A DNA stretch of 64,000 nt from an uncultured bacterium (GCA_963749495.1 CAVVMW010000024.1:32001-96000); one strand, 5' to 3'; shown: positions 14,025 to 32,632, numbered from the stretch's first letter. Numbers and translations are program-made. Notes: generated from the sequence alone by a model not told the origin.

Positions 14025-14029
14025 AAGTT

Positions 14030-14233: not shown

Positions 14234-14273
14234 CTCTTATTTTGAGGGAAAGCAGAACCGCAGAACCGCTCTT

Positions 14274-14386
14274 GCAGAACCATGCGCGGCAAAATCATTG
14301 CTGGCAAAATCATGCAGAAAGAATTCCTTAGAAATGATTTTGCCAGCAATGATTTTGCTTCATGCCTGCTGCCTATGATTTTGCCT
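14274..14386. repeat. Inverted arrays of a ~15-nt unit containing GCAAAATCAT
   Basis: ggcaaaatcattgctggcaaaatcat ... atgattttgccagcaatgattttgc; related unit at 3806-3831. Confidence 0.8.
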
Positions 14387-14432
14387 CATTTTAGGATTCA
14401 TTTTTCAACCGCCTTTGCGCAACGTAACGGGG

Positions 14433-15173: not shown

Positions 15174-15279
15174 CAGTCTCGGAGGATTTGGGATTCAGGT
15201 AAATTGTTGACAACCTCACCGAATCTGAGAAAATGCCCGGGTTCTCCACCGAGTTGGCCAAGCAGAAGAACCAGCTTTT

Positions 15280-18200: not shown

Positions 18201-20652
18201 CCTCTCTGAGGAAAACCCGCACCTCACGAGCCTGGTTCCCCCTTCCGCTGTTGCCGGCGGGCCGTCCTTTACCCTGCAGGCAATCGGGTGGAATTTTGAC
18301 ATGAACTGCATCCTTCGCTGGAATGGCTCCAACCAGATGACCACCCTGGTCAGCGGCACGGAGTTGACCGCGACAATCCCCGCCGACTACATCGCGGTGC
18401 CCGCCACCTGCCACGTGGACGTGTTGATTCCCGGCTCGGGCGGTCTCCCGCCCCCGGGCATGAGCAATCCTCCTGTGACTGGGACCTTTTCCGAGGTCGT
18501 CAATTTTGTTATCCAACCGGGCAATCCGACCCCGGCCATCTCCAGCCTGAGTCCCGGCTTCGCGTTTGCGGGCGGGCCGCCCTTCACGCTCACGGTCAAT
18601 GGCAGCAACTTTATGAGCAGCGCGGTGGTGGCATGGAACGGCGTCAACCAATCCACAACCTTCATCAACAGCAACCAGTTGATGGCCATCATTTCGCCGA
18701 CACTTATCGCCTCCGCTGGCACCGCCGCGGTAACGGTGACGCAACCAGGCGCCCAGCCTTCGGCTTCAGTGACGTTCACAATCAACCCACCGAACCCAGT
18801 CCCTGCCTTGACGAGTCTGAGTCCTCTCTCCACTTGTGCAGGTGGGCCGGCCTTAACGCTGACGCTTGGTGGGAGCAACTTCATGGGCGCCTCCGTCGTC
18901 CGATGGAACGGCGCTGATCTTGCCACCACTTTCGGCTCGTCAACCCAGTTGACCGCCACGGTCACCGCTTCGGCTATTGCCGCGACTGGAGCCGTCCAGA
19001 TAGCTGTCTTCAACCCGCCGCCGGGCGGCGGCCTATCCGGTCCCCTCGACTTTGCGGTCCTGCCACCCAAGCCCGTCCCGCTTCTGGTCAGCCTCAACCC
19101 AAGCTCGGCGCTCGCCGGAGCCGATTCGTTGATGCTGACGGCTAACGGGAGCAACTTCGTGCAGAGCGCAATAATTCAATGGAATGGGACCGGTCTGGCG
19201 ACCACATTCGTGGACAACACTCAACTCATCGCCCTCGTGCCCAAGACCTTATTGGCTTTGGCCGGTTCAGTGAACATCATCGTATCCCAGGACGGAGTGC
19301 CTTCGCAGCCGCTTGCATTTGTGATTGGGAGTCCCAATCCCGTGCCGGTGATCAGCCAGTTGATTCCCAATTCGGCCACCGCCGGCGACCCAGCCTTCAT
19401 CCTCTCGGTGACGGGCACCAATTTCCTCACCAACTCGGTCGTGCGGTGGAATGGGGCGGACCGGGAGACCCTTTCTGGCTCGATCACTCAATTGATGGCG
19501 AAGATCACCGCCGCCGATGTCGCCTCCACCGGCACGGTGGCCGTCTCCGTGTTTAACCCCGCCCCGGGAGGCGGGCTCGCCGACGCCCTGGATTTTGTCA
19601 TCCAGCCTCCCAAGCCGGTGCCCACTCTAAGCACGTTGAGCCCGAACTCCGCGGTCGTGGGCGGCAACCTGTTCGTCCTGACCGTTTCCGGGAGCAATTT
19701 TACTGCCAGTGCCAGTATCCTCTGGAACGGAACGGCTTTGGCCACCACTTTTGTCGGCAGCGGACAACTCATGGCCATCATTCCGAAGACCCTCCTTACG
19801 ACCGCTGGCACGGCAACGGTGACGGTGGTCCAGGACGGCGTCGCCTCCAATCCGTTGAGCTTTGCGGTCGTGGCGCCAAACCCGGTGCCCTCTGTCGCGG
19901 CCCTCAGCCCCAATTCAGCCTACGCCGGGGGAACAGGGACCACCGTGACGGTCAGCGGGACGAATTTCATCCCGGCCTCGGTTGTCCGTTGGAACGGGGC
20001 GGATCGGCCGACAACGTTTAATTCCTCGACGCAGTTGGTGGCGCAGTTCAGCGCCGCAGACCTTGCCAGCGCCGGGACAGCCAGTGTGAGCGTGTTCAAT
20101 CCGAGCCCGGGCGGGGGCGGCTCGACCGCGCTGGTCTTCACTGTCCAGCAGGGCAATGCAACGCCCGCACTCTTCTCGTTGCAGCCGAGCTCGGCCACTG
20201 CCGGCGCCGGGGTCTTCTTGTTGACTGTCAACGGCACCAATTTCGTGAATGGCGCCACGATTCGTTGGAACAACGCGGACCAATCGACGAGTTTCATAAA
20301 CAGCAACCAGCTCTGCACTCTCATCCTGCCGGCCCTGGTGGCTGCGCCCGGCACTGCAACGGTCACGGTGTCCAACCCACCGCCCGGCGGTGGCATCTCC
20401 GGTCCTTTGCCTTTCGCCATCGCCGGCCAGCAAGTCCTGCTGACGTTGGCGCCCTTGCGCCTGCAAGGCGGGGGCTTCTACTACCGCGTGACAGGGCCAC
20501 CCGGTTCTCGCGTGATTATTGAGACGTCCACGAATCTGTTGAATTGGACGGTGGCGAGCACCAACGATCTGACCGGCGGCCAGACCGATTTATCGGACCC
20601 CAGTGTCGCGACTTCCAAGCGCCGATTTTTCAGGGGCGTGTTGTCCCAGTGA
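15280..20652 (+). CDS. 1790-aa secreted/surface protein with Ig-like (Big) repeats, a PPC-like domain, IPT/TIG repeats and a C-terminal putative sorting domain
   Basis: Signal peptide; repeated DRTPPVVSITSPTDG; PNDNFSDR...SVWWSWTAP...FDTLLGVY; repeated PNPVP.LSSLSP..A.AGG..FTLTVNGSNF; tail IETSTNLLNW...KRRFFRGVL. Confidence 0.9.
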   Translation: MKTSKVLPTTLTLAILCLGLAWPATTRAGFKITLKQPPDGDYIRGGLPPIGGCIYSWPDPWVWPLTGTWVAIQRDSDGAFWSGSQWQGSSAWITVLVPVGLIYSGPWTLPVRLPSYADLSEGSYTISAHAETLDDKRDAQTHFKVDRTPPVVSITSPTDGAGLSSLTLISGSATDTGSGVVSCDVVLQRQSDQLCWDGQNWSSGNPINTSGPSQFTGDYWSNWSISDNLPGDSDLLEGNYLITATALDRMGNIGTATVTFIVDRTPPLVPVVSSPADGATIPALFNIWGTTADNPGGAGIDHVNVLIQRARDNSTWNGSDWVANQTELPATLGVVLVRVPVNGHWGSMLQTSWSPSAGLPTGDKLENGDYELIVTAYDVMNLHTAATNTFTVNKVAPTITIAAPSNGGTFSNAAFPVLSGTATVTSGLGIAKVVLYLAYTYINDYNGQEDEDDWNGVEWVNRQTTALTATVSGTNWTYSAGLPSGGNLSEGHYLVLAYVYDTGGNDNFAACHVYIDRTAPPPPVIQVPTSGAVLNALSGIQGTATDDPNGYGLDHVELALVGQFLDPASQTTKSYYWDGSVWQPNAVYLRALCSDTNWFCTNALPAGTNLYDASYVIQAHAINLATNVGPDATCNFTIDTVPPVVTITSPTNGEALLDLSGCAGTVTDSSPIRSVTLNLWRDSDLRSWNGAAWANGYAVITATVSGATWTCNTSLPHGDDLPPGSYYLNAEGDDTVGNSGSATVLITVLAPNPLPALSWLDPSAGFAGDPGFTLAVVGSNFVQGATVLWNGADRTTYYVDDQELLAQINAADVASAGTVAVSVFNPAPGGGTSTSLGFAVQTRPVVPNDNFSDRIVLGGYSASATGSNAGATLENGEPNPVSGMTGGRSVWWSWTAPGSGTVTTDTKGSSFDTLLGVYTGNSLASLTLVASDNNSGGNFTSQVVFQGEAGTQYQIQVDGVAGAYGTIQLNINESLSEENPHLTSLVPPSAVAGGPSFTLQAIGWNFDMNCILRWNGSNQMTTLVSGTELTATIPADYIAVPATCHVDVLIPGSGGLPPPGMSNPPVTGTFSEVVNFVIQPGNPTPAISSLSPGFAFAGGPPFTLTVNGSNFMSSAVVAWNGVNQSTTFINSNQLMAIISPTLIASAGTAAVTVTQPGAQPSASVTFTINPPNPVPALTSLSPLSTCAGGPALTLTLGGSNFMGASVVRWNGADLATTFGSSTQLTATVTASAIAATGAVQIAVFNPPPGGGLSGPLDFAVLPPKPVPLLVSLNPSSALAGADSLMLTANGSNFVQSAIIQWNGTGLATTFVDNTQLIALVPKTLLALAGSVNIIVSQDGVPSQPLAFVIGSPNPVPVISQLIPNSATAGDPAFILSVTGTNFLTNSVVRWNGADRETLSGSITQLMAKITAADVASTGTVAVSVFNPAPGGGLADALDFVIQPPKPVPTLSTLSPNSAVVGGNLFVLTVSGSNFTASASILWNGTALATTFVGSGQLMAIIPKTLLTTAGTATVTVVQDGVASNPLSFAVVAPNPVPSVAALSPNSAYAGGTGTTVTVSGTNFIPASVVRWNGADRPTTFNSSTQLVAQFSAADLASAGTASVSVFNPSPGGGGSTALVFTVQQGNATPALFSLQPSSATAGAGVFLLTVNGTNFVNGATIRWNNADQSTSFINSNQLCTLILPALVAAPGTATVTVSNPPPGGGISGPLPFAIAGQQVLLTLAPLRLQGGGFYYRVTGPPGSRVIIETSTNLLNWTVASTNDLTGGQTDLSDPSVATSKRRFFRGVLSQ

Positions 20653-20726
20653 CCAGCGAGCCTTTACCCGCGTAGCGTCAAAAAGCAATCGCCTGTCAGT
20701 TATTCCTCAGAACTCGCCCTTAAAGT

Positions 20727-20797
20727 GGCCGCTTGACGGCCTTGAGGTTTTCCGGGCAGAGTCGCGCCATGTACAAGATCATCGGAACAGACGGCAA
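20727..20797 (+). repeat. Left 71-bp direct repeat (attL-like): promoter plus truncated start of the GYF_2 gene
   Basis: 70/71 identical to 29969-30039; mismatch A20787 vs G30029. Confidence 0.95.
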
Positions 20798-20994
20798 TAT
20801 GTCACAATAATATGTCCCTGGCAGGCAAAAAGTGAGTTTCTGGCGGCAAAAGGGGCCGGTGCCGGGAAGGACCGACCCTTCGTTCACGCAGCCGGTTGAG
20901 GACGGCCCGGTGCAACCCCTACGGCGTCCTCAGAGGGGCACCGGCTTCCGTGCGGGCAATCAGCGCACGCCGAGCCAACGAGGACGAGCCTGTA

Positions 20995-21578
20995 TCAACT
21001 GGCCATGCTCAACACCTTGCCGACCGAGGACACCGGCATTTTCAACTCCCGCGCTATGGCCCGGACCCCCAGGCCCTTCTTCTTCAGTGCCAGCACATCG
21101 CCGCGCTTCTCGGCCAAGGTGCCGGGCCTGCGCCCAACTTCACGCCCTTCTCGCGGGCCGCACCCAGGCCGGAATTGACGCGCTCTTTGATTATCTCCCT
21201 CTCAAATTCCGCGAGTGCCATCAAGACGGCCATCTGGAATTTGGCACATGGATTGGACTCTGAGGTATCGATGCCCTGGGTGGTGCAAATCAACGGCACC
21301 TTCAACCGGGCCATCTCGTCAATGATGAACGCCAGGTGCGTCAGGCTGCGGCCCATGCGGTCCAACTTGTAGCAAACCACGCGCGCTATCTTGCCTGCAC
21401 GCATGTCCTTGAGCAGCCGGTCGAGCGCCGGGCGCGTGGTGGACGCGCCGGACATCTTCTCGGTGTAGAAGACCAGGTTCTTCCAGCCGCGCATTTTGCC
21501 GCAGCGCTTCAACTCCAGTTCCTGGGAATCCAACTTCTGGTCCTTCGTCGAGACTCGCATGTAAACGGCGGTGTCCAT
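20995..21578 (-). CDS. Small serine recombinase (resolvase/invertase) with C-terminal HTH; frameshift near 21131
   Basis: AVYMRVSTKDQ (catalytic Ser), SGASTTRPAL, KLDRMGRS, AEFEREII.ER. After GVKLG a shifted frame gives RPGTLAEKRGDVLALKKKGLGVRAIARELKMPVSSVGKVL (HTH) ending at 20995. Confidence 0.88.
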
Positions 21579-21599
21579 AAAACTGATGTTATATGGACA
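21572..21599. promoter_or_regulatory. res site I-like 28-bp imperfect palindrome overlapping the resolvase -10 box and start codon
   Basis: TGTCCATAAAAC-TGAT-GTTATATGGACA; arms match 11/12; 12-4-12 geometry. Confidence 0.7.
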
Positions 21600-21720
21600 T
21601 TGGGCCATGTCAATCGAAACCAGTGAAATTGGCAGAATTTAAGGGCCTGGATTGAGGGGGGATTTGTGGACACCCCTTGCGGGCGTTGAAGGGGCTGGGG
21701 GTGTCGAAGCTGCTGCCCGT

Positions 21721-21797
21721 CGTCCACGACCACGTCCACGACCACGTCCAGGGCCACGATCACGACCACGACCATGTCCACGACCACGACCACGACC
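21721..21797. repeat. Hexamer tandem repeat (CACGAC/CACGTC) x~13
   Basis: Read directly. Confidence 0.85.
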
Positions 21798-21897
21798 AAC
21801 CGAGCGCGAATTTCCCCGCCTGGTGCTGGGTTGCCGGGGTTGGTGCCCGGCTGGGCGCTTCAATGTGGCAGAGCAACCCTTCACCCTGGGTTGCGGC

Positions 21898-22338
21898 TCA
21901 GACTTCGATGTGCGGTGCCCCGTGCTCGCATATTTCGGCCACGGGGCCCGTCAGCGTTTCGCCGGAAATGAACTTGCCCTCCACATCGGCCACGCCGACC
22001 TCAGCGAAGCCAACTCGAAAACCCGCCGATCGGAGTGCCGTAATCCACGACCGCAGGAGAGCGCCGTTGTCCTCCGCGAAGACCCGCTCGGTCAGCCGCA
22101 TCTTGAACGAGAATCGTTCCCGGTCGGCACTGAGCTGAAGATCGATGTCGTTGAACCCGGCTTTGGCCAACTCACCGCGAAGCCGGTTGAGGTCTGGGCA
22201 ACCGTGGACCGGCTGATCTTGCGCCCAAGCAATCTCCTCCGGGGAAAGCCTGCTACGGGCGACAAACTCCGCGATCGTTTCACCCTTGGCCCGCTCGTTC
22301 GCGCCGAACCTGCCAGACTGGATGTGCGGCAGCCGCAT
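21898..22338 (-). CDS. Hypothetical protein (island)
   Basis: Globular-looking 146-aa ORF (MRLPHIQSGRF...) just downstream of 22347-22763 on the same strand. Confidence 0.5.
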   Translation of the reverse strand: MRLPHIQSGRFGANERAKGETIAEFVARSRLSPEEIAWAQDQPVHGCPDLNRLRGELAKAGFNDIDLQLSADRERFSFKMRLTERVFAEDNGALLRSWITALRSAGFRVGFAEVGVADVEGKFISGETLTGPVAEICEHGAPHIEV

Positions 22339-22346
22339 CGGTTTTG

Positions 22347-22763
22347 TCAACCCTCGTTCGCGGGCGCGTTTACCTGCTGCTGCTGCTGCGGGGTTGGCCG
22401 CTCCTGGCCGAGCATCACAAAATACAACGTGCTTTCGACCAATTCGACCGTCACGGCGTCGCAGCCTTCGTAGTCGAGCCGGATCAGCGGATTCACCATC
22501 CGAGCCGCCTGGGCGAAGTCGGCCTGGCGAACGCGCCGGCAATACTGGGCCACTTCGTCGGGGCGTTCCCCAGTCAAGCCTTCGGGCGGCAGCCCTGGAG
22601 GCTGCTGCCGGGCTGCTGCCTGTTGCCGCTGTCGCGACACGCGCTGCAAAAAGGCTTTCGGGTCTTCGCCCCTTGCCGCTGCTTGCTTGCGCGGCATTTG
22701 GTGCAGGAAGAAATCCTTCGGGTCTTCACCCCGGATAATTTGCCGGCCAGCGGGTAGATTCAT
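22347..22763 (-). CDS. Hypothetical protein with internal repeat (RGEDPK x2, QAAAR x2)
   Basis: ORF track; internal duplication visible. Confidence 0.5.
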   Translation of the reverse strand: MNLPAGRQIIRGEDPKDFFLHQMPRKQAAARGEDPKAFLQRVSRQRQQAAARQQPPGLPPEGLTGERPDEVAQYCRRVRQADFAQAARMVNPLIRLDYEGCDAVTVELVESTLYFVMLGQERPTPQQQQQVNAPANEG

Positions 22764-23188
22764 GGCCCGACGTTAGCCGTCGAAGCCACGTCTGTCCATT
22801 CCCACTACTCCCGCTAAAGCCGCTGGAGGACGCCCTCCACGGCCGCGTGACCGGCCCTTGACTCGACCTGGCCCGGACGGCGGGCGGGAACAGGGCACCA
22901 CGGACGGCAAGGCCCGGTGCCGCGCCGCAAACCGGCCTCGGCCAGGCCGCGAACCAGTGGAACGCCTTCCTGGCCTGCTTGGCGGATGAACGGAGCGCGA
23001 TCGGGCTTAGGTCGGGACGCTGCCCGCTGATACGGGCACCTGCGCAGGCCCATCGGGAATGGCGGCGTCGAGAAGCAGCGGAACCAGTGCCGGGCGCTGC
23101 TCCGGTGGGCCATGCGGCATAAGACCACGAACCCGAAGGCCAGCCGTTGCCACGCGCCTTGACCGGCCTGTTATACTGATGCCGCAAT

Positions 23189-23683
23189 ATGCAGAGCGAA
23201 TACAACTATACGTGTCCGAATTGCTCCAAGGAATGCTCTGTGCCTGAATCCATGACCGGGCAAAATCTAATCTGTCCGAACTGCTCACAGGAGTTTTTCG
23301 CTACGCCGCCCGTCCTCGAAGAACCATATGAAACATTGATGCAAAAACCTACCGTCCCATCTGTGAACGATGTGGAAGGCTTTGTGAAGTGGATGGTGAA
23401 GTATGGCCAAGACTTCGCTCTCTTGAGAGAGCTTTACGCAGGGGCACTCGATAGATTCCTCGAGGCACTCTGGGTGGACATTAGGAATGAAATCATGCAG
23501 AGGAATCTCACTTCATCGGACGCGCTGATGACGCGGGCAGGTGAGCTTTCCGAGTATTATACCGCAAATCTTGAAAAGCCGGTTAACGCTAGTGGGGGCA
23601 TCATGGGGTGCCGGGCGGACCTTCGACTCGTCGCCACAGTTATCCAGGCGAAGATGATGGTGATGTTTCGGCTGGCAAAGTAA
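23189..23683 (+). CDS. Zinc-ribbon domain protein
   Basis: CPNCSKEC...CPNCSQEF; extended TGTTATACT box upstream. Confidence 0.65.
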   Translation: MQSEYNYTCPNCSKECSVPESMTGQNLICPNCSQEFFATPPVLEEPYETLMQKPTVPSVNDVEGFVKWMVKYGQDFALLRELYAGALDRFLEALWVDIRNEIMQRNLTSSDALMTRAGELSEYYTANLEKPVNASGGIMGCRADLRLVATVIQAKMMVMFRLAK

Positions 23684-23742
23684 AAGTATGGCGCGCCAAT
23701 CTCAGATTGGGTCCTCGGCCCCCTCCGCTAGCGGGTCAGTAG

Positions 23743-23919
23743 CTCTGGGAAGAGCGCGGCAAGCAGGTGCTGGCCATCATCCCCCTCGACCTGGACGGCT
23801 ACCTGTTCGACCCGCAGTGGCAGGACTGGAGCAAGCAGCACCTGACTGACCGTCTGGGAGCCGACTTCAGAGGCTGGGAAGCCGACAAAGCGAAATTCGA
23901 GGAGCAGTTTCAGTGCTGA
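23743..23919 (+). pseudogene. Fragment resembling the C-terminal part of a TIR-domain protein
   Basis: Manual translation: LWEERGKQVLAIIPLDLDGYLFDPQWQDWSKQHLTDRLGADFRGWEADKAKFEEQF. Preceded by an in-frame TAG; no start. Confidence 0.55.
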
Positions 23920-23987
23920 TTAAGGCCGGTCCGAGGGAGTAGCCTCAACTACGAATCCAGTTGTCCCTTCCACGTCCTAGCTTCGAG

Positions 23988-24683
23988 TCATTCCTCGCTG
24001 GGATTCTCATGGAGGAGTTTGTTCACGGTCCTTAATCCCTCCTCGACCGTATGGCAAGCCATGTCGCCGCGACAACTAAGCCATCTCTCGAAAATAAGCA
24101 GCAACAACAACTCCTGATCACACTTTGGTGAGAACCCTTCCTGCGTCCTTTGGTCAGCCTGTCTAAACTGCCCCGCCGTACGCAGCAAATCTGCACAGAT
24201 CAAAAAGTTAACGCCGGGGCGGTCTGCCGTGCCCTGTCCCTTACTTATGGCGCGCCCAAGAATGTGCTCCCCACGCAAGCGGCATGTTTTCGCGGCTTCG
24301 GTCTCTCCGGCGTCGTCGCAAGCCCATGCCCCGTAAACACAAGCCCATCCTGCTTCGTTAAGGCGACCGAGGGTCTCCAAAATCAGGGAGGAGCAAAGAA
24401 AACGGTTCGCCAACTCTGGATACTCCTTGGACTTCAGTTGTAGGCGATACTCATTACTGGCCAAGATAGCCGATATGTCAGGCAGCGGGGCCGTGATGCT
24501 GGGCATACAGTAGCCGCAATGTGGACAGACTTGAACCTGTTGGGGCAATGTGGAACGTATTACCTCCGCAGGGCGAGTGTCCAGGTCCGGCGACCCCCAA
24601 GCACTCGTGGACCCGATTATCGCCTGTTCGCTCAACCCCTGGCACTGGGAGCATCGAATTTGCTCTTTATACAGCATCGTCAT
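23988..24683 (-). CDS. DUF2225-like protein (Zn-binding N-terminus + TPR-like helices)
   Basis: CSQC...GSPDLDTRP...VQVCPHCGY...AWACDD...ADLLRTAGQF. Confidence 0.7.
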   Translation of the reverse strand: MTMLYKEQIRCSQCQGLSEQAIIGSTSAWGSPDLDTRPAEVIRSTLPQQVQVCPHCGYCMPSITAPLPDISAILASNEYRLQLKSKEYPELANRFLCSSLILETLGRLNEAGWACVYGAWACDDAGETEAAKTCRLRGEHILGRAISKGQGTADRPGVNFLICADLLRTAGQFRQADQRTQEGFSPKCDQELLLLLIFERWLSCRGDMACHTVEEGLRTVNKLLHENPSEE

Positions 24684-24687
24684 ACGC

Positions 24688-25101
24688 TCACCATGTCCCC
24701 AGTTGACGCTCCAGATATTTGCCGAGGACTGCCCGCGCTCCGGCCAATTGCTCAGGAGTATATAATGGATGGAAATAATCCTGGACTGCTTGGGCGTTGG
24801 TGATTTTGTTGACCAGGGTTCTGTCGCCCAAGTCGAAGCGCATCTCGTCAACGCTCCTGAACCCTTTAACGTCTCGCGCCTCTCCATCTATACGCACGAA
24901 CACGTGAGCAAACGCTGTCGCCTCTCGGTTCGTCAGTCGCCACAATTCCGCTTGGGGAAATCTCAGCTTTAACAATTGAGGGACCAAGAAGCAGAAGCCT
25001 CCGGCCCCTAACTCCTCTGGGCTAGAATTGCTAATCTCGTCGGGCGAGAGACGGCTGAATGGAGTCTTGCGCAGGTCGCCTGTCTGGTTCTTGTCATCCA
25101 T
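24688..25101 (-). CDS. Hypothetical protein (island)
   Basis: 137 aa; GGFC...HVFVRIDGEARDVKG; operon-like spacing with the downstream gene. Confidence 0.55.
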   Translation of the reverse strand: MDDKNQTGDLRKTPFSRLSPDEISNSSPEELGAGGFCFLVPQLLKLRFPQAELWRLTNREATAFAHVFVRIDGEARDVKGFRSVDEMRFDLGDRTLVNKITNAQAVQDYFHPLYTPEQLAGARAVLGKYLERQLGTW

Positions 25102-25221
25102 AAGTATTTTATCGCTGCGTTCTCTGATTCTAAGCGACGGCCTCTGGTCACGACTGATTCAGGTCAAGAACTGCGAGCAAGTCCGGGATTTCATCTACGT
25201 GGTGCAAGTGGAGCAATCCCG

Positions 25222-25824
25222 TTACCAGAGCTTACAGTGCTCTGGAAAGGCGGTCTGGAACGGAACCCACCCGCCCAGCCCTTCGCGCCAGACCAACGAA
25301 GTGGATGCGACCTCGCCGTAGTGGAATAGCCTTAATAGGTCGGACTCGGACACAGGCCCACGCCGATTGTCCCACCGGTCATAGTAGAGCCAGTCGTGCG
25401 TTTGGTGCTCAGGTTTTGCGGCTCCTAGCGGGCTAGGCGGGGTTTCGGTATTGGCAGATTTGGTGATGAAGGCCCAGTAATCCGCCAGGGACTTCTTGTC
25501 CGAGCCTTTCAAAAACAGTAGTCCCGCTGCGGTCACGAACGCCACGCTTAACCACTGGATAAGCAGGCGGTCGGAAGCTATTGAAACACTCTCATAAAAC
25601 TCACCTGGCGCGGCGAATGGAGGATTAGCCAACTGATGCGCTGGCGGCGGTTCAAAGAGGAACGCGTATCCGGCAAATTCCTGGGTTTCGGTCTGCATGA
25701 CGGGCTGCCCCCGAGTGGCCCCCAAAATAACCTGATGCCTGGCCTTCGTCCAAGGGGGATAGATGAGCATCGCGGCCATCACCGCAACCATGAGCACCAA
25801 CCACTGTTTTTGTATCGCGTTCAT
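25222..25824 (-). CDS. Membrane protein with C-terminal GYF_2 (DUF4339) domain
   Basis: Two TM segments; WLYY....RRGPVSESDLLRLF..GEVASTSLVWREGLGGWVP. Confidence 0.75.
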   Translation of the reverse strand: MNAIQKQWLVLMVAVMAAMLIYPPWTKARHQVILGATRGQPVMQTETQEFAGYAFLFEPPPAHQLANPPFAAPGEFYESVSIASDRLLIQWLSVAFVTAAGLLFLKGSDKKSLADYWAFITKSANTETPPSPLGAAKPEHQTHDWLYYDRWDNRRGPVSESDLLRLFHYGEVASTSLVWREGLGGWVPFQTAFPEHCKLW

Positions 25825-25918
25825 ACTATTGAGTTTTCATTTTTCCATTCCGCTTTGGGTGGTGCCATCGCGACTATGGACCGGCCATGCGGCAGGGCAA
25901 GCGAAAAGCGTCCACAAC

Positions 25919-26035
25919 CAGGCCCTCCCGCCGTCCGCCAGCCTGCTCCTGGTCGGCGACGTGCACCAGTTGCCCTCGGTCGGGCTGGGCATTGTCCTGC
26001 GGAGCCTCATCGAGAGCGGCCTGGTGCCGGTGGTA
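25919..26035 (+). pseudogene. RecD2/TraA-like SF1 helicase fragment (motif III region)
   Basis: ALPPSASLLLVGDVHQLPSVGLGIVLRSLIESGLVPVV; flanks unrelated. Confidence 0.7.
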
Positions 26036-26104
26036 GGCAGCCTGCCGGGCACCCTGCTGGCCAGGGGCGTAATGGCACGTGGTGCACTGGTCTCGCACCG
26101 TGAC

Positions 26105-26629
26105 CTATCCGGCTGGATCGTCGGTGTCAACTGCCTCATCAGCATTCTGAACCCTGTTCAGCCCTACAAGCCACGCTTTCTGTCCGCCAGCCCGGTCGTT
26201 GGCCGTCGTGGAGACGAGGTATCGAATTGGAAACTGCGTGAGCATCGACGCAGGTTCGTCCGTCTTGTCCTGCGGGACCACCTTGACCTCGTAGGTATGC
26301 CCTCTCTCGACTCTTCCGTGGTGCCGATAGTGAATCTCGTAGTCTCCCGCATCTGGCCTTTCCGGGCAAAAGCGGAGCATCACCGTAAAAGCAGGTGTAG
26401 ATGTTTCGATAACGAACAGCCCATCTCGGCAGATGGCATGAGAAACCCTTGGCCAGTCACCAAGGCAACTCGGAGGTGACTCGCGAGCTTCATCGTTTAG
26501 GAGAGCAAGAAATCTCTCCTTGAGTCTTTCACGTTGCTCAGGACGACTCAAGCCCCAATTTGGGTCCTCGAAGCTTTCCTGTGGCATGAACTTAATGACG
26601 CCGAGATTCGCGTCGCGTCCATTCGACAT
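26105..26629 (-). CDS. Hypothetical protein (island)
   Basis: 174-aa ORF with globular composition in a lower-GC region. Confidence 0.5.
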   Translation of the reverse strand: MSNGRDANLGVIKFMPQESFEDPNWGLSRPEQRERLKERFLALLNDEARESPPSCLGDWPRVSHAICRDGLFVIETSTPAFTVMLRFCPERPDAGDYEIHYRHHGRVERGHTYEVKVVPQDKTDEPASMLTQFPIRYLVSTTANDRAGGQKAWLVGLNRVQNADEAVDTDDPAG

Positions 26630-27314
26630 AACGTATTACATATTCATCCACGTCTTTTCGTTCAATGGCCAGGAATGCTGAAGGATTAGAGGTTGGGAGG
26701 CAAGCCAAGGCTTACTCGACTTCGACAGGCTTATGAGGCCACACTCGGCTGATTGTGAGCACTGCGGCCAGGGAAGCTCGAACGACTGCTCGTCGCTGGC
26801 GGCGAGCACGTTGACAAGCGCGTCAAATGTGCCCCGCAGCGCCCTTGCTAAGGTTTTACCGGTAGTTGCGCCGGTCGCCAGCGTCAAAATACCCTCCACG
26901 GCACCGGCAGGCGTCAAATTTGACAGGTCAAAAGCCGCCCCGGAGCGCCCGTCAAGGGCACACGCTGCGCGGTCTTCCAACATGTCGTCATCGTCGTTCA
27001 CAGCACGCCAGGCTTCTGGGCCATGATGAGCCGATGGTGCTTTTGAATCAACATATTTGACATCGGTTTGACGGCGCAACCCTCCGTGACCACGGCGCTT
27101 GCGCGGGTGCCCTGTGTTGGCAAATGGACCTCTGCTACCGGTGCCGGTCAAGCGGGTGGAGTGCGCCAGGCAAAAAATTTGTATTGACCGAATGGGTCTG
27201 CCGGGTCCACTGGCGGCAAGTTAAGCGCAAGTCCAGTGCCAGCGAGACTTTCGCCTTCGGTCTGCCGGGTTCTTGCGGACCAGCGAGTCTTGGGCTGACC
27301 GTCGTTCGCACCGC

Positions 27315-28064
27315 ATGGCCACGCCCTCGATTTCGAACCTGGCCCGCTGGCTGGCCGAGAAGTTCCACAAGGTGACATCGACCTGGGCGCACGACTGGCC
27401 GAAGGCGCTGACGGTAATGCCGGGCAGCGCGGTGGGACGCGTTCAGCTACATCGAGGCCCTGGCCGCCTGAAGCGCAAGGCCGAGCAGTTTGAACTGGAC
27501 TGGGGCGAGCCGCAAGCGTTCGCCCTGGTCCAGCAGGAAACACTCGACGGCGAGCAGCACGCCGGAGAAAAAACAGCAAAAGGAGGACGACGAGAAACAA
27601 GCAGAGCGGAACCAAAAGCCCCTGATATGACAGACGACTTCGATCCATTCATCCTGTTCTCCCGAGAGTCGGCACCGCCGCCCGCGATTGAGTCGCCGCG
27701 GACTCCACCACCACCCAAGCCGCCGCTCAAACCCGAGACCAAGGAGTTGCCCTACACCATCTGCACCCTCATCGCGCAGTGCAGCGGGTTTAGGATCAGA
27801 GGCGTGTTCGGTTACACCGGTGCGGACATTTTCACATACAGGTAGGGGCCTGTGCCAGACCACGAATGCCGCTCAGGCTATCGCTCCCGCGTTACTGAGC
27901 AGGGCGCGATTGACTACGACGTTGGCCTGGCCTTTCTGGTCAACGGAAAGCGTGGTCAGAACTGGACCACGGTGATCGCTTACGAGCCGGACGACACCTG
28001 CTGCGCCTCGCACGGCGTCTGGAGGCGCACCGCAAGATTCCCGAAGAGCGTGCAGGGCGTGTGA
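27315..28064 (+). pseudogene. Degraded hypothetical gene(s); frame continues across TAG 27843-27845
   Basis: ORFs 27273-27845 and 27852-28064 share a frame and are separated by one stop. Confidence 0.4.
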
Positions 28065-28642
28065 CCGAGCCAAACGTCATCGAGGGCGTCACGGTCCTGG
28101 ACGGCAGGAGCCAGCCCCAAGCCTTGCACAAAGACCTGGGCTGCAGCCGAGCCCGTCATCGCGGTAGCGCCGCCGAGTACGCCACAAGGGCGCTCCAAGA
28201 CACTGTCGCTGCCGGCGCGCCCGAGGAGCTGAGGAACGATCTGGAGCAGGTCCTGGCGCGCCCGTACACCAACGGTGCCCGGTTCGGCCTCTTCCTGGCA
28301 AGCCGCCCCACATCCAATCCGCCCACGGTCGAGAGTCCCCAGCGCCACAATGTCGCGGCAGTTCCGAGGGGGTGCGGCCCGCTAAAATCGAGCGGCGGGC
28401 GTTCGAAAAACTTCGGTGTCATCCGGTTCTACGAGATTTCTGGCGCGAACAGGAGACTGGCGAAATCAAGGAGGCTGCGCTGCCCACCCCCAGAGCGTGG
28501 GCATTGAGCCAGGCGGAAATCGCTGCTGTTTACACTCTCGCCGAGACGCCCGCAGAGCGGCGGGCGCTGCGAAAGTCCCTGGCTCTGACCCATCTGGTAT
28601 TACCCCGCCAGGGGCCAGGCCCCGACCAGCTCGTAGCGCAGC

Positions 28643-28966
28643 GTGACCGTACATGCCCAGGCTCATGCCTTTGTCACGGACTCGAAGTCAAGCGCCGAGC
28701 GATCCGGTGGGCGGGTCACCGCGGTGGACTTCATCGCTCAGATTGCGTTCGGCGGAACGAATGCCATGACCTTCGCCGTTTCGGGCTTCGTGAGCGAGAC
28801 ACTCACGGACATCATGCGCGGCCGCGAGTGCCTGGAGTCTGCCGGCGATTTCCGGGCAACCGTCTCCGGCTCCGGCACGGCCATCGTGGGGGGCGTTGCC
28901 TGCCCGGCCCTTTACACCGGCACCATCATGGCGACGGGACGCAACTACGAAGAGGACGAGGATTAG
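28643..28966 (+). CDS. Hypothetical protein or fragment (island)
   Basis: 107-aa ORF, beta-rich, acidic tail; start uncertain. Confidence 0.35.
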   Translation: MTVHAQAHAFVTDSKSSAERSGGRVTAVDFIAQIAFGGTNAMTFAVSGFVSETLTDIMRGRECLESAGDFRATVSGSGTAIVGGVACPALYTGTIMATGRNYEEDED

Positions 28967-29028
28967 ACGTTGCATCAATAGTGTAGTGGCCGGATTTCCA
29001 GAAAAATCCACGATGGCACAGAAAAGAC

Positions 29029-29066
29029 TACCATTTCAATTCTCCAAATGGTATTATGAGATGGTA
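29029..29066 (+). promoter_or_regulatory. Palindromic operator of the vapBC operon
   Basis: TACCATTT-N9-AAATGGTA (29029-29053) overlapping TGGTATTAT; extra ATGGTA half-site at 29061. Confidence 0.6.
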
Positions 29067-29356
29067 TGAGCACAGGAACGATTCAGATCGACAAAGCCGG
29101 GCGGGTGGTGCTGCCCAAGCTGCTTCGGCAACAGTTCAACCTTGAGCCCGGGGACAAGCTGCGCCTTTCGGTCGAAGGCAACAGCATCAAGCTCGAGCCG
29201 GCTGACACGGGCGGGAAGCTGGTCCGCAAAGGCAGTGTGCTCGTGTTTGTCGGGGATTTCGTCGAGCCCGTCACAACCGCCTCGGTCGAGAATTTGCTTT
29301 CCGGGCAACGCGAGGCCTGTTTATCCGACGCCGCTGGAAAGCTGCAAAAGAAATGA
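29066..29356 (+). CDS. AbrB/MazE/SpoVT-family antitoxin (VapB-like)
   Basis: IQIDKAGRVVLPKLLRQQFNLEPGDKL. Confidence 0.9.
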   Translation: MSTGTIQIDKAGRVVLPKLLRQQFNLEPGDKLRLSVEGNSIKLEPADTGGKLVRKGSVLVFVGDFVEPVTTASVENLLSGQREACLSDAAGKLQKK

Positions 29357-29787
29357 AGGTTTTTTTGGACACCAATCTGCTGGTGGCGGCCTGTGTCGAA
29401 GAGCACGAACATCATGCGCGCGCGCTTCCGGTGGTCGAGGCAGTCCACCAAGGCAAAACCGACGGTTATGTGAGCGCGCACAGTCTGCTCGAAACCTACG
29501 CGGTTTTGACGCGCCTGCCGCGTTCCCCGCGTATTACGCCCATGCAGGCAGCGAAGCTGGTGGAACAAAATATCGGCAGCCATTTTACCGTCGTCGCGCT
29601 CACCGCAAAAGAATACGGCCAGCTCGCGCACAAATTGGCCGAAGAGAATATCCTGGGCGGGCAGGCGTTCGACGCTTTGCACCTGGAGTGCGCGGCGAAA
29701 AGCGGAGCAGAACGCATCTACACGTTTAATGTGCGACATTTCGGGCCATTGGGCCGTCATCTGCGGGCCGCAATTTGCGCGCCGTGA
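29353..29787 (+). CDS. PIN-domain toxin (VapC-like)
   Basis: VFLDTNLLV, SLLETYAVL, FDALHLECA, IYTFN; ATGA overlap with the antitoxin. Confidence 0.9.
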   Translation: MKVFLDTNLLVAACVEEHEHHARALPVVEAVHQGKTDGYVSAHSLLETYAVLTRLPRSPRITPMQAAKLVEQNIGSHFTVVALTAKEYGQLAHKLAEENILGGQAFDALHLECAAKSGAERIYTFNVRHFGPLGRHLRAAICAP

Positions 29788-29826
29788 ATCGTCCATACTG
29801 GTTCGAAACGCTCCCACCTTCACTGA

Positions 29827-29944
29827 GAAGGTGTGAAAAAATTGATTTCTGGCGCCAAGGAGCGAAAAGAATCTTCAAAATCCCCAGGAAAACAGAGGGG
29901 TGTTTTCGAGTATGATGCCCGTTTTGGCATTTTTTCACACCTTC
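29827..29944. mobile_element. 118-bp MITE with perfect 16-bp terminal inverted repeats and TGA target duplication
   Basis: TGA|GAAGGTGTGAAAAAAT ... ATTTTTTCACACCTTC|TGA; reconstructed empty site CTGAG. Confidence 0.8.
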
Positions 29945-29968
29945 TGAGGCCTTACCTCGAAGGCAACA

Positions 29969-30039
29969 GGCCGCTTGACGGCCTTGAGGTTTTCCGGGCA
30001 GAGTCGCGCCATGTACAAGATCATCGGAGCAGACGGCAA
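29969..30039 (+). repeat. Right 71-bp direct repeat (attR-like) supplying promoter and start of the intact GYF_2 gene
   Basis: Matches 20727-20797; contains TTGACG-N18-CAGAGT-N6-ATG. Confidence 0.95.
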
Positions 30040-30529
30040 GGAGTATGGCCCGATTCCTGGCGAGGTTTTGCGCCAGTGGATCGTCGAGGGGCGAGCCGAT
30101 GCGCGGACTCGAGTGCTTGCCGAGGGGAGTGCCGAATGGAGGCCGTTGGCGGAGGTGCCGGAGGTCTCCGGGATGCTGGCAGCGGCACCGGCACCGGCGC
30201 CGGCCGCCCCCGCCGCCGCCGCGCCGGCGGGGCCGGCGCCGAGGACCAACCCGATGGCGGTGAGCGGGCTGATCATGGGCATCCTGGCGCTGACTTGCGC
30301 GGCGTGTTGCTGCTATGGGTTGCCGTTCAATGTGCTCGGCGTCGTCTTTTCGAGCATCGCCTTGTCCCAGATCAAACAAGACCCCGCTGGGCAAAAGGGC
30401 CGCGGCATGGCCGTGGCAGGGCTGGTCCTTTCGATCCTGAGCATTCTGCTGACCCTGCTGGTCCTGATCCTGGGCCTGGGTGTCGCGTTCAGCGCCTTCG
30501 ATATCATGCGCCGCTTCCAGAACTATTGA
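30011..30529 (+). CDS. GYF_2 (DUF4339) + DUF4190 membrane protein
   Basis: MYKIIGADGKEYGP..LRQWIVEGR; TNPMAVSGLIMGIL...ALSQIK...KGRGMAVAGLVL. Confidence 0.85.
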   Translation: MYKIIGADGKEYGPIPGEVLRQWIVEGRADARTRVLAEGSAEWRPLAEVPEVSGMLAAAPAPAPAAPAAAAPAGPAPRTNPMAVSGLIMGILALTCAACCCYGLPFNVLGVVFSSIALSQIKQDPAGQKGRGMAVAGLVLSILSILLTLLVLILGLGVAFSAFDIMRRFQNY

Positions 30530-30563
30530 CCCGCTTGCGCGGGGAAATGCGATTGAGCCACCC

Positions 30564-30971
30564 ATGAACACGGATCGACACGGATTTGCGGCGTCCAGGC
30601 CCCCAGTGGCGTTGCTGGTCGCAGTGCTCGCCGCGCTCGCGGTGTTGGCGGGCAGCGTCATCCTTTTCGAGTTCGACCCGGACCGCTCCTGGTTCTATCC
30701 GGCCTGCCAGTTTCACCGGGTCACCGGGTTGCTTTGCCCGGGCTGCGGTTCACTGCGCGCCCTGCACCACTTGCTGCACGGCCGGATCGCGCTGGCTTTG
30801 CATTTCAACGCCTTGCTGGTGCTCTGCCTGCCTTGGGCGGCCTGGTTTGCCGCGCGCGCGCTGCTGCGCTTTCTGAGGAGCCAGCCGCTGCCCTCGGGCA
30901 TTCGTCCGGCCTGGCTCTGGTGCGCCGTGGCGGCAACGCTCTGCTTCGGGGTCCTGCGCAACGTCTTCTAG
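30564..30971 (+). CDS. DUF2752 membrane protein
   Basis: PACQFHRVTGLLCPGCGSLRALHHLLHG...GVLRN. Confidence 0.88.
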   Translation: MNTDRHGFAASRPPVALLVAVLAALAVLAGSVILFEFDPDRSWFYPACQFHRVTGLLCPGCGSLRALHHLLHGRIALALHFNALLVLCLPWAAWFAARALLRFLRSQPLPSGIRPAWLWCAVAATLCFGVLRNVF

Positions 30972-31029
30972 CTTGCGCCCCGGCCCGCAATCCCCTACAA
31001 GCAGCCTCGATCCGTGAACCGGACAAGCT

Positions 31030-32028
31030 ATGTATAAAATCATCGGTGGAGACCATAGGGAGTACGGACCGGCAACCGCCGAGGAGTTGCGCCGCTGGAT
31101 TGCCGAGGGCCGGCTCAGCGGCCAGAGCCTGGTCCAGGCTGAGGGCACGGGGCAATGGAAGCCGGTGTCGGCATACCCGGAGTTGGCCGACGCCCTTCGG
31201 GCGCAAGCCCGCTCTGCCCCGGAGGCGGGCGTGGCAGCGCCCGTGCCGGACGCCGCCGCCTGGTCGGCGGACCTGCGGGCGCGCCGCCCCGAGGTGCGAA
31301 TAGGGGAGTGCCTGGCGCTTTCCTGGGACCTGCTGCGCGACAACTTTGGCCTGCTCCTGGGCGCCACGTTCCTGGTCTGGTCTATCGAGACGCTCTGCCA
31401 GTATCGCTGGTCAACGGGGCTGTTCTATATGCTGCTGCAGGGGGTGTTATACGGCGGCCTCTCGATGGTTTTTCTCAACCGGATTCGGGGCGAACCGGCG
31501 GCCGTCACGGACGTTTTTGCGGGCTTCAGGGTGGCTTTTGGGCAATTGCTGCTGGTGGGCTTTATCAGCCACCTGTTGACCTTTCTGGCGGGCCTTTGCT
31601 TCCTGATCGTGCCTGGCATCTACCTGTTCGTGGCCTGGCTCTTCAGTGTGCCGCTGGTCATCGACAAGCGCCTGGAATTCTGGTCGGCCATGGAGACCAG
31701 CCGGCGGGTGGTCACGCGCGCCTGGTTCGAGGTCTTCGCCCTGTTCCTGATCGCCCTTCTGCCGACGCTGGCCATGGGCGTGTTCATCCAGGGCAAAGTG
31801 GCCGTGGCCATGCTGCCGATGCTGCACGGCGCCTTTCCCCCGGGCGCGCCTCCGGACTTCGGCCGTCTGAGCGAACTGCTCAACCAGGCCGGGCAAACCG
31901 CCCGCATCACGCCAATGCTCCAACTCGCCTCGAGGCTGGTCTTTCTGGTCAACCTGCCCTTCGCCCTGGGCGCCCTGTTGCACGCCTATGAAAATCTCTT
32001 TGGCACTCGGCGCGCGCCAACCCCTTAG
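31030..32028 (+). CDS. GYF_2 (DUF4339) domain multi-pass membrane protein
   Basis: MYKIIGGDHREYGP; LIVPGIYLFVAWLFSVPLVIDKRLEFWSAMETSR. Confidence 0.85.
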   Translation: MYKIIGGDHREYGPATAEELRRWIAEGRLSGQSLVQAEGTGQWKPVSAYPELADALRAQARSAPEAGVAAPVPDAAAWSADLRARRPEVRIGECLALSWDLLRDNFGLLLGATFLVWSIETLCQYRWSTGLFYMLLQGVLYGGLSMVFLNRIRGEPAAVTDVFAGFRVAFGQLLLVGFISHLLTFLAGLCFLIVPGIYLFVAWLFSVPLVIDKRLEFWSAMETSRRVVTRAWFEVFALFLIALLPTLAMGVFIQGKVAVAMLPMLHGAFPPGAPPDFGRLSELLNQAGQTARITPMLQLASRLVFLVNLPFALGALLHAYENLFGTRRAPTP

Positions 32029-32383
32029 CCGCCAGACCGCCTGGGGTTGCCTGACCACCAACGTGGCCCTGCCCGGGTTCGGCTCGCTCCTGGCCGGGCG
32101 GCCCTCCGGCTACCCCCAGGCCGCCCTGGCGCTAGGCGGCATGGCCCTGACGGTGTGCTTCGGCCTGCGCTTTCTCCTCTGGTACTCCCAAAATGCCGCC
32201 CACATCCGCAGCCCCGAGGCCGACCCGGCCGAGGTGCTGCTGAGCATGTGGGTGGAGGTGCGTTGGGCGGTGCTGGGTATCGCCCTCTTCGCCATCGGCT
32301 GGCTCTGGGCCCTGGCCACAAGCCGCGCCATCCTCCGCGCCGCCCGGGAAGCGGAGACGCAGAGAGTGCCTCCGCGTCTCTGA
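31988..32383 (+). CDS. Hypothetical membrane protein
   Basis: AWGCLTTNVALPGFGSLLAGR plus TM segments; overlaps the upstream gene. Confidence 0.65.
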   Translation: MKISLALGARQPLSRQTAWGCLTTNVALPGFGSLLAGRPSGYPQAALALGGMALTVCFGLRFLLWYSQNAAHIRSPEADPAEVLLSMWVEVRWAVLGIALFAIGWLWALATSRAILRAAREAETQRVPPRL

Positions 32384-32422
32384 ACCGGGCTCCGACAGCG
32401 GCGGCGGTGATCCGCTCGAGCT

Positions 32423-32632
32423 GCGTCGCGTAGCGACGCTGTGAAGGTAGCCGTGGACCTCGGTCCACGGTTTGGCGCAGCGGAAGAATCATGCGCCGCG
32501 TAGCGACGCCTGAGAGCCTCGGATCGGCGGATCGAACCGCCCGTTCGAGCGTCGCTACGCGACGCTGATGATCCCAGGGCCGGCGTCCGTGGACTGAAGT
32601 CCACGGCTACCATCAAACACCGCTACGCGGTG
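32423..32632. repeat. Gene-less tri-hairpin REPIN-like element
   Basis: gcgtcgcgtagcgacgc / GTAGccgtggacctcggtccacgg / cgccgcgtagcgacg, then the inverted set cgtcgctacgcgacg / ccgtggactgaagtccacggCTAC / caccgctacgcggtg. Confidence 0.85.

Follow-up and report, generated by a model that had tools for sequence, protein, structure and literature searches.

Two copies of a 71-nt direct repeat are present in the 64,000-nucleotide stretch of DNA analysed here (the window), located at 20727–20797 (left copy) and 29969–30039 (right copy) on the plus strand. Repeat search identified them as a two-copy family with a spacing of 9242 nt. The copies are 70/71 identical, the longest exactly matching run comprising 60 letters and the sole mismatch being located at repeat position 61 (A at 20787, G at 30029), i.e., on that side of the left copy which faces the enclosed DNA segment (hereafter, the island). 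This single mismatch may stem equally well from a diverged copy brought in from outside or from drift thereafter. Within the 12-kb region, the second-longest direct repeat in two copies has 31 nt and 74 % identity, and blastn of 20500–30300 against the whole 11.37-Mb genome retrieved the 71-mer at these two sites only, confirming the originally predicted pair of 71-bp repeats with one mismatch, 9.24 kb apart.

Each repeat copy contains (i) TTGACG from position 7 onwards, (ii) an ATG at position 43 (20769 and 30011, respectively) and (iii) the first codons of a GYF_2/DUF4190 gene, ending two bases into codon 10. The right copy has island DNA upstream and opens the reading frame of a protein of 172 aa that combines a GYF_2 and a DUF4190 domain. 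It heads an intact membrane-protein operon (30011–32383, plus strand) encoding the GYF_2/DUF4190 protein (30011–30529), a DUF2752 protein (30480–30971), a GYF_2 protein (31030–32028) and a small ORF (31988–32383), which is conserved in 3/3 congeners. The left copy, with the same promoter-like block, ATG and codons 1–10, is preceded by the native upstream edge AAGTG (20722–20726) and translates into MYKIIGTDGNMSQ followed by a stop codon (20769–20810), representing an orphan 13-codon ORF. The block CTTGAC-N18/19-GGCAGAGTC-N5-ATG is kept in every orthologous locus seen, and a sigma-70 scan called no promoter at the repeat block. Since no Shine-Dalgarno sequence is found upstream of the ATG, a leaderless start is plausible; judged from sequence features, the block may provide promoter activity as well as leaderless translation. 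The left flank is formed by a gene for a 1790-aa bacterial Ig-like repeat protein (15280–20652, plus strand), the end of which lies 75 bp upstream of the left repeat. This gene has matches in none of the 44 other genomes of the family, indicating that the left flank is itself accessory and that any pre-insertion state is therefore a reconstruction.

The island (20798–29968; 9,171 bp) has a GC content of 59.5 % and resides on contig C24 of an 11.4-Mb Verrucomicrobiota genome. Next to a small serine recombinase pseudogene at its left end (see below), it contains a hypothetical ORF of 214 aa with no family assigned (21898–22542, minus strand), a 45 %-identical homolog of which also adjoins the recombinase gene in a genome of another genus (G052). 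This is followed by genes for (i) a hypothetical protein with two CxxC zinc-ribbon motifs and weak, below-cut-off Pfam matches (23189–23683, plus strand), (ii) a hypothetical protein without Pfam hit, for which language-model features provide a DUF2225-like lead (23988–24683, minus strand), (iii) a weak phage YunG-like match (24688–25101, minus strand; 25 bits vs. a cut-off of 27) and (iv) a membrane protein whose C-terminus bears a GYF_2 domain (25222–25824, minus strand), so that the island possesses its own paralog of this target-operon domain. For a remnant of an AAA_30 helicase gene (~120 bp; 25898–26034, plus strand), more complete copies occur at other sites of the genome, including an intact ORF of 791 aa on contig C7. 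The right part harbours a VapBC toxin-antitoxin pair (29066–29787, plus strand) composed of VapB (AbrB/MazE-type antitoxin, 29066–29356) and VapC (PIN toxin, 29353–29787). A copy of a genome-wide non-coding repeat (29809–29962) extends to within 6 bp of the right 71-bp repeat; it belongs to a ~90-copy family, the head of which harbours a nested MITE of ~126 bp with AAGGTGTGAAAAAAT as inverted ends and a duplicated TCAG. Thus, at least this part of the island, holding genome-native repeats, is not recently foreign. A six-frame Pfam scan covering 100 of the 111 stop-to-stop ORFs added only the helix-turn-helix (HTH) domain of the recombinase, the YunG-like match and the AAA_30 fragment. No phage or ICE backbone, restriction-modification genes or recognisable replication gene were found in the island.

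The GC content of the island core (23200–27199) amounts to 56.3 % and thereby falls within the lowest 1.1 % of the genome's 4-kb windows, the genomic average being 63.1 % (sd 2.5). As a unit, the island is absent from the 44 other family genomes, which contain fragments only: the recombinase and its neighbour (82 %, G052), a 643-bp segment (85 %, G003) and VapBC (67 %). The prediction of an island between the repeats was thereby borne out, insofar as the segment represents accessory DNA of foreign composition.

Comparison with three congeners reveals homology that begins at the first bases of the repeat and extends to 32374, and 10000–29945 has no match at their respective loci. In congeners and metagenome relatives, a single promoter/start is present, to which either of the 71-bp copies can be aligned. 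AAGTG precedes the left copy but not the right one, and it likewise precedes the orthologous segment in 4 of the 7 distinct lineages. Searches of genomes and metagenome contigs retrieved no conspecific or syntenic relative and hence no empty site, due to scrambled synteny in the genus: within 1–15150 of the window, each 1–3-kb block maps to a different congener contig. In agreement with such scrambling, one may envisage an old chromosomal region without any insertion, the left copy having arisen by local duplication of the promoter or by rearrangement. Gene order at the locus indeed differs in every congener, the gene located upstream of the operon in one of them (G002) is here found inverted on the same contig at a distance of 75 kb, and the right end of the island holds the genome-native repeats mentioned above. 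However, the core is low in GC, mobile-element debris and toxin-antitoxin pair suggest an origin by import, the 70/71 identity implies a comparatively recent event given that congeners diverge by 28 %, and a clean attL/attR-like geometry is not expected of random rearrangement, rendering this explanation very unlikely. From composition and geometry, we infer that the segment was inserted.

The small serine recombinase (resolvase/invertase) gene at the left end of the island (20998–21608, minus strand) is a pseudogene. Its catalytic domain (21084–21608) is complete (PF00239, 136 bits), but a 2-bp insertion near 21132 places the HTH domain (20998–21130) out of frame, as is evident from the intact, 79 %-identical ortholog in G052. 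This 174-aa protein provides the only PF00239 match in the island; the original prediction correctly regarded it as the island's sole recombinase, yet missed the frameshift. A perfect 28-bp dyad (TGTCCATA-N12-TATGGACA; 21572–21599) overlaps the start codon of the recombinase gene, is conserved in the G052 ortholog and likely represents the cognate site of the enzyme. The dyad is perfect at this position only; the other match in the window (24500–24527) has 3 mismatches and a different central dinucleotide. Mobilisation of the element by this recombinase via integration and excision at the 71-bp repeats, as had also been proposed, could be assumed from its position 200 bp (3′ end) from the left repeat, from its being the island's only recombinase, and from the 82 % DNA identity to G052, indicating a module of recombinase and neighbour that is mobile between genera. 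This proposal is largely refuted and hardly tenable: besides the disrupted HTH domain, neither repeat contains a match to the conserved dyad at ≤3 mismatches, and no NCBIfam equivalog cut-off is reached. Moreover, Gin invertase and Tn3/γδ resolvase, its closest relatives of solved structure, act within one molecule at short dyad sites with a 2-bp crossover. The locus provides a negative example in that a recombinase gene inside an island need not encode the enzyme that inserted it.

No trace of a tyrosine integrase was detected in the island, neither by PF00589 profile search nor by the six-frame scan (100/111 ORFs). Among the 45 PF00589 matches in the genome (E ≤ 1), none is located on contig C24. 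These findings bear on the possibility of a classical island of the type known from dusA, i.e., an element with its own attP, comprising surrogate promoter and gene start, whose tyrosine or large serine integrase has since been deleted. According to Farrugia et al. (2015, PMC4482086), dusA islands and prophages replace the 5′ end and putative promoter of the gene upon insertion, have a dedicated tyrosine integrase beside the site and 21-bp semi-conserved repeats, and occupy the same site in >200 genomes, the replacing 5′ end being the island's own diverged sequence. The present locus has in common with them the insertion into the 5′ end of a protein gene, the flanking direct repeats, and a new 5′ end with putative promoter that adjoins island DNA and leaves the gene expressible. 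The geometry is exactly that of attL/attR with the element supplying the new upstream DNA of the operon, loss of the integrase gene would be plausible in a decayed island (frameshifted recombinase, helicase remnant), and the genome is rich in integrases. However, the locus has no phage or ICE backbone, and in contrast to dusA islands as described there, it lacks an integrase or remnant thereof, its 71-bp repeats are near-identical and carry lineage-specific variants, and no other genome is occupied: the suggested survey for further islands at the same gene start found the promoter single-copy in 3/3 congeners, 11/11 metagenome loci and 2/2 genome-collection loci.

The lineage-specific variants are particularly informative. 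Orthologous 71-nt segments (11 full-length sequences representing 7 distinct lineages; one 60-nt locus dropped) differ from the right copy at 5–15 freely varying positions, whereas the left copy differs at 1. Both copies thus carry the variants of this lineage, and an element-borne surrogate would have to originate from the same species. This favours integrase-independent insertion-duplication over an island of the dusA type with its own surrogate start, which is therefore considered rather unlikely.

Taken together, the preferred reading (probability of roughly 0.55) is an integrase-independent insertion-duplication of 9.2 kb of foreign, decaying DNA at the beginning of the GYF_2/DUF4190 operon, with target duplication or single crossover both fitting as putative mechanism. 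In such a scenario, the already decaying DNA would have entered just inside the operon start, leaving the recipient lineage's own 71-bp segment of promoter and first ten codons on each side. The right junction (island DNA, repeat, gene) would keep the operon expressed, while at the left junction (native upstream edge, repeat, island DNA), an orphan promoter and its ORF of 13 codons would face the island. The island encodes no enzyme that can now move it, leaving host recombination across the two repeats as the only way of deleting, amplifying or circularising it. Such an event would show how a gene start can receive imported DNA and the operon still remain active, since promoter and first codons then flank the insert at either end.

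A textbook route to insertion-duplication is the Campbell-type single crossover of circular DNA with a short homologous segment. Its product would have the same geometry as the present locus, namely native edge, repeat, insert, repeat and gene, with both copies near-identical to the recipient. On the other hand, 71 bp are short for a RecA-dependent crossover, and foreign DNA bearing the recipient's promoter requires a prior step, e.g., a previous stay of the DNA at this locus in a conspecific. Preservation of the target gene is also known from phage 21 and e14 at icd of E. coli, where the element carries a copy of the displaced gene end and the host gene stays functional; insertion there concerns the 3′ end, involves a tyrosine integrase, and the element-borne surrogate is diverged from the host copy. 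As at icd, the host gene would be functional after insertion, but the 5′ end is affected here, no integrase is present and the copies are near-identical. Insertion with long target duplication (Nobusato/Furuta/Kobayashi; Furuta et al. 2010, PMC2853133) proceeds, in the cases described, without a working mobility gene and yields repeats of 46–420 bp, a range that includes the 71 bp observed here; these cases carry restriction-modification genes and were proven by the empty site in a conspecific genome. The present locus resembles them in the size of the insert (9,171 bp, i.e., <20 kb), in direct repeats >30 bp that align to a single copy in related genomes, and in having no working mobility gene (recombinase frameshifted, its dyad not in the repeats), but differs in its cargo without restriction-modification genes and in being known without a conspecific empty site. 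The original notion of an unusual att site is not supported, since replacement of 5′ end and promoter has been described for dusA (PMC4482086) and long target duplications without mobility gene have been described as well (PMC2853133). The locus is a tidy case of a type of insertion scar already described rather than a new integration system. If integrase-less cassettes bracketed by duplicated gene starts share a mechanism, be it long target duplication or recombination of a looped-out circle, this route would be under-appreciated as compared to integrase-driven islands.

A public sequencing run of the same strain (X1; 0 differences) contains a 275-nt contig joining 29917–29968 to 20727–20949, i.e., island right end, repeat and island left end, at a depth of 3.66 (2–4.5 elsewhere). 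This contig could represent the junction of a circle or tandem, or else a false 31-mer path through the repeat. X1 consists of contigs built from 31-letter words with low, patchy cover (11 % of words), and in combination with the 60-letter exact repeat, a false path would give the same contig. The junction would allow for the integrated assembly being wrong or incomplete, with the 9.2 kb existing as a free plasmid-like circle or tandem array that shares 71 bp with an unoccupied chromosomal site. In favour of this, X1 provides no cover of 30175–30641, and no listed piece spans either assembled junction. An empty-site contig was not seen in X1. Resolvase plus toxin-antitoxin pair would also agree with a free circle, as both are typical of plasmid maintenance. 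However, the resolvase is broken, no replication gene is recognised, and the genome assembly resolves IS copies of 2.7–3.1 kb with 99 % identity inside contigs, which implies that it is probably based on long reads easily spanning 71 bp and not confused by the repeat. A free circle or array is therefore regarded as quite unlikely.

If real, the X1 junction would not be expected of a scar that is fixed and immobile, and it would correspond to the one-repeat circle resulting from reversal of a Campbell-type crossover. One may thus speculate, albeit tentatively and as an unlikely case, that the 9.2 kb represent a still-mobile, integrase-less element passing between circle and chromosome by host recombination across the 71-bp homology of promoter plus gene start. 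The operon would then be expressed in either state of the element, which would consequently need no recombinase of its own, and the circle-type junction at chromosomal depth would reflect its free or tandem form.

A repeat search over 19500–31500 returned one two-copy family of 71 nt, at 20727–20797 and 29969–30039 (spacing 9,242 bp, identity 70/71); the second-longest two-copy direct repeat in this interval has 31 nt at 74 % identity. By blastn of 20500–30300, the 71-mer occurs at two places only in the 11.37-Mb, 31-contig genome. Within the repeat, TTGACG occupies positions 7–12 and ATG positions 43–45, and the end coincides with the second base of codon 10. In the left copy, MYKIIGTDGNMSQ is terminated by a stop; the right copy starts a protein of 172 aa with GYF_2 and DUF4190 domains, and DUF2752 and GYF_2 genes come next on that strand (Pfam). 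Thus, the original prediction is confirmed with respect to two 71-bp direct repeats about 9.24 kb apart with one mismatch, to their extent from 6 bp before a −35-like box into codon 10, and to a short ORF on the left as opposed to an intact gene and operon on the right. Owing to the sole mismatch (A at 20787 versus G at 30029), the left copy has Thr in place of the native Ala7; G occupies this position in every relative.

A sigma-70 scan gave no promoter call for the conserved block in the repeat, and the best −10 candidate (CAGAGT) has 3 of 6 consensus bases. The arrangement CTTGAC-N18/19-GGCAGAGTC-N5-ATG is kept in every orthologous locus seen, i.e., in 3 congeners, 11 metagenome contigs and 2 genome-collection contigs (both titled Verrucomicrobiota MAGs). 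No Shine-Dalgarno motif is present upstream of the ATG. Conservation of the block and lack of this motif together make it plausible that the repeat holds a compact and probably leaderless start module, and it may contain a promoter. A tRNA-type att site was rejected, because the window contains no tRNA or tmRNA genes and 19000–32000 has no match to Rfam families at E ≤ 1.

The left copy is preceded by AAGTG, the right copy by AACAG. AAGTG also precedes the conserved block in four of seven distinct orthologous lineages, indicating that the left copy retains the native upstream edge and that island DNA abuts the right one. Judged from the sequence, the two copies have the attL/attR geometry of an insertion. 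Compared to the right copy, the orthologous 71-nt segments of the seven lineages show 5, 8, 10, 11, 14, 14 and 15 differences (counted on 11 full-length sequences, with one 60-nt locus dropped) versus one difference between the left and right copies, which therefore both carry the lineage's own variants at positions freely variable among congeners. An element that, like dusA islands, brings along a surrogate gene start of its own would be expected to match one species less exactly. The near-identity of the copies agrees with the recipient's sequence having been duplicated during insertion; re-entry of DNA earlier looped out from the same locus in a conspecific would fit too.

The best reading of the locus is an integrase-independent insertion-duplication, with a probability of roughly 0.55. 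Foreign DNA would have entered at the operon start, so that it is now flanked on either side by the lineage's own promoter/start module of 71 bp. The operon would be kept running by the right copy, and the left copy would be an orphan from which transcription may proceed into the island, in antisense direction to the defunct recombinase gene. Now devoid of an enzyme of its own, the element could be deleted, amplified or circularised only if the host recombines the two repeats. Restriction-modification cassettes are known to occur as insertions that have long target duplications (repeats of 46 to ~420 bp) but lack a working mobility gene (PMC2853133). The present locus agrees with them in the repeat criteria and differs in having no R-M genes and no conspecific empty site.

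A second reading, namely a classical island that has lost its integrase, would have its closest parallel in dusA, where islands sit in the 5′ end of a protein gene and provide it with both a new 5′ end and a putative promoter (PMC4482086). The geometry is common to both, but the two defining features of dusA islands, an integrase and recurrent site occupancy, are absent here. PF00589 yielded 45 genome matches at E ≤ 1, none of them on the contig carrying the window (C24), and among the 11 genome matches to PF00239 the small recombinase is the only one within the island. The nearest large serine recombinase resides outside the window at ~65,093 (window-equivalent) and forms part of a 3.1-kb multi-copy element. 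A search with a degenerate promoter/start pattern for islands at this gene in other genomes yielded 11 metagenome and 2 genome-collection loci; all of them are single-copy, up to 10 kb of flank being free of another copy. Loss of an integrase from a classical island is accordingly considered unlikely. Literature on prophages duplicating gene starts offered nothing directly usable.

The small serine recombinase gene of the island (21084–21608, minus strand) was originally proposed, as one of two alternatives, to mobilise the element. Its 174-aa ORF encodes a complete resolvase catalytic domain (136 bits), the HTH following in a different frame. Alignment with the intact ortholog of G052, a family member of another genus (82 % DNA and 79 % protein identity), revealed a 2-bp insertion near 21132, outside any homopolymer. 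The homology to G052 comprises the recombinase gene, ~80 bp upstream and a neighbouring ORF, and ends at the stop codon. The nearest solved relatives are the Gin invertase and the Tn3/gamma-delta resolvase, and no NCBIfam equivalog cut-off was reached. A perfect 28-bp dyad (8+12+8), TGTCCATA-N12-TATGGACA, spans the recombinase start codon at 21572–21599 and is conserved in G052; it is probably the recombination or autoregulation site of this enzyme, for which it is the obvious candidate. The dyad has no match in either 71-bp repeat at ≤3 mismatches. With the gene broken, the enzyme of the wrong kind and its own candidate site located elsewhere, mobility driven by the resolvase is not supported and highly improbable. 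A dyad look-alike at 24500–24527 (3 mismatches) was dismissed as chance or relic, since its central dinucleotide is different.

A 12-bp tandem repeat (CGTCCACGACCA-like, ~8 units) at 21709–21810 codes, on the plus strand, for a stretch rich in His and Asp. Its hundreds-fold depth from unrelated soil runs points to low-complexity sequence common to other organisms.

The 9,171-bp island has a GC content of 59.5 %, decreasing to 56.3 % in its core (23200–27199). The 4-kb windows of the genome average 63.1 % (sd 2.5), and no more than 1.1 % of them fall below the core. Besides the recombinase, a Pfam scan of 24 ORFs recognised a VapB/VapC pair (29066–29787), a weak YunG-like match and a GYF_2-domain membrane protein. 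When 100 of the 111 stop-to-stop ORFs of ≥55 aa were scanned in all six frames, the sole additions were the recombinase HTH, which lies in a different frame, and a fragment (40 aa) of an AAA_30 helicase; of the other 11 ORFs, 7 were covered by the 24-ORF scan and 4 overlap the right repeat and the target gene. The helicase piece (Walker-B/motif region, ~120 bp, 25898–26034) recurs at 72–87 % DNA identity in many family genomes and in at least 7 places of the genome under study, where the copies are mostly truncated and a single ORF, of 791 aa on contig C7, is intact. These paralogs were identified by family search, the longest ORFs being wrong frames in this high-GC DNA. The fragment is a remnant of a multi-copy gene. 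For 15 island ORFs, PHROGs matches were limited to two weak families besides the recombinase and the antitoxin, and PADLOC gave zero matches. Viral contigs contained no relatives of the two island proteins searched, and one ORF is DUF2225-like by language-model features only. Based on gene content, composition, remnants and a genome-native repeat, the island is a patchwork of imported and decayed DNA with no recognisable phage, ICE or plasmid backbone.

The genome-native repeat lies directly left of the right 71-bp copy (29809–29962) and belongs to a family of ~90 copies. A MITE of ~126 bp (29823–29948) interrupts it in the head of this family (GTAAGGCCTCAGTGAAGGCGGGAGC..., then a GC-rich hairpin); the inverted ends of the MITE read AAGGTGTGAAAAAAT, and TCAG is duplicated at its target. 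About 14 further MITE copies occur genome-wide (e.g., C6:20824–20948 and C12:544319–544443 on two other contigs), 3 of 14 having one orientation relative to the host repeat. Considered as an invertible switch, with its middle inverted against conserved outer ends in these 3 of 14 copies, the 126-bp element was rejected: ~90 copies of the outer sequence without interruption indicate that the MITE inserted in either orientation into another repeat family, duplicating TCAG.

In the three congeners, homology to the target locus (70–72 % DNA identity) extends from the first repeat bases to 32374, and 10000–29945 of the window has no match at these loci. As a unit, the island is absent from 44 other family genomes, a DNA search of the 45 family genomes having yielded fragments only; the intervening genes are thus not retained as core in relatives. 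A stretch of 643 bp (26128–26770) is 85 % identical to a segment of one congener (G003:C28:91038–91681), compared to only 70–72 % for the core operon. Its best reading frame reaches 75 % versus 67–69 % in the others, none being clearly better conserved; the stretch looks like recently shared, non-constrained DNA.

The left flank is the gene of a 1790-aa Ig-like repeat protein, and 18200–20726 has matches in 0 of 44 other family genomes. The gene upstream of the promoter is different in each of the three congeners. That of congener G002 has its ortholog in the genome under study 75 kb downstream on the same contig, inverted (C24:136930–138015), a position compatible with an inversion having one breakpoint at the promoter edge. 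Further left, the genes of 1–18200 map individually to different contigs of the three congeners: core genes (ribosomal protein S2, a VTT-domain protein and others) lie one by one on different contigs, as do consecutive 1–3-kb gene blocks of 1–15150 in all three. Gene order is extremely scrambled in this genus, with no syntenic relative among the genomes compared. A local rearrangement with nothing imported would suit such mobility of gene order and the possible breakpoint at the promoter; set against the imported DNA of the island, it is regarded as improbable.

The region was found in one public DNA sequencing run only (X1, same strain; share of words 0.11), stored as contigs, and in no listed RNA run. 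Eight listed pieces on 18500–32500 cover both flanks and the island at a depth of 2–4.5; seven match the window exactly, and the eighth departs from it only by C>T at 29627. A 275-nt contig (depth 3.66) joins 29917–29968 to 20727–20949, i.e., the island right end, the repeat and the island left end, in the order of an excised circle or tandem copy. Such a form, mis-threaded in the assembly or co-existing with the integrated one, would account for this contig. With patchy cover, contigs built from 31-letter words and a repeat with 60 identical letters, a false path entering via one copy and leaving via the other would yield the same contig. Cover is missing at 30175–30641, so the competing exit from the repeat may simply be absent, and the patchily covered X1 contigs include none of the empty site. 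It is therefore doubtful that the junction is real, and a circle or tandem form as explanation of the locus is rated rather unlikely.

Short-read assemblies do not resolve repeats of 2.7–3.1 kb with 99 % identity, and 71 bp would not mislead a long-read assembly. Copies of this kind are resolved inside long contigs of the genome under study, suggesting a long-read assembly that is sound across the 71-bp repeat. The 2.7-kb unit carries a 352-aa tyrosine recombinase (95–99.4 % identity; C19:51.0–53.8 kb and at least 14 other places), and the 3.1-kb unit a 768-aa large serine recombinase (99.0–99.3 % identity; C24:96.1–99.2 kb, immediately beyond the right end of the window, plus 5 further places). 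Several contigs of the genome terminate in these elements.
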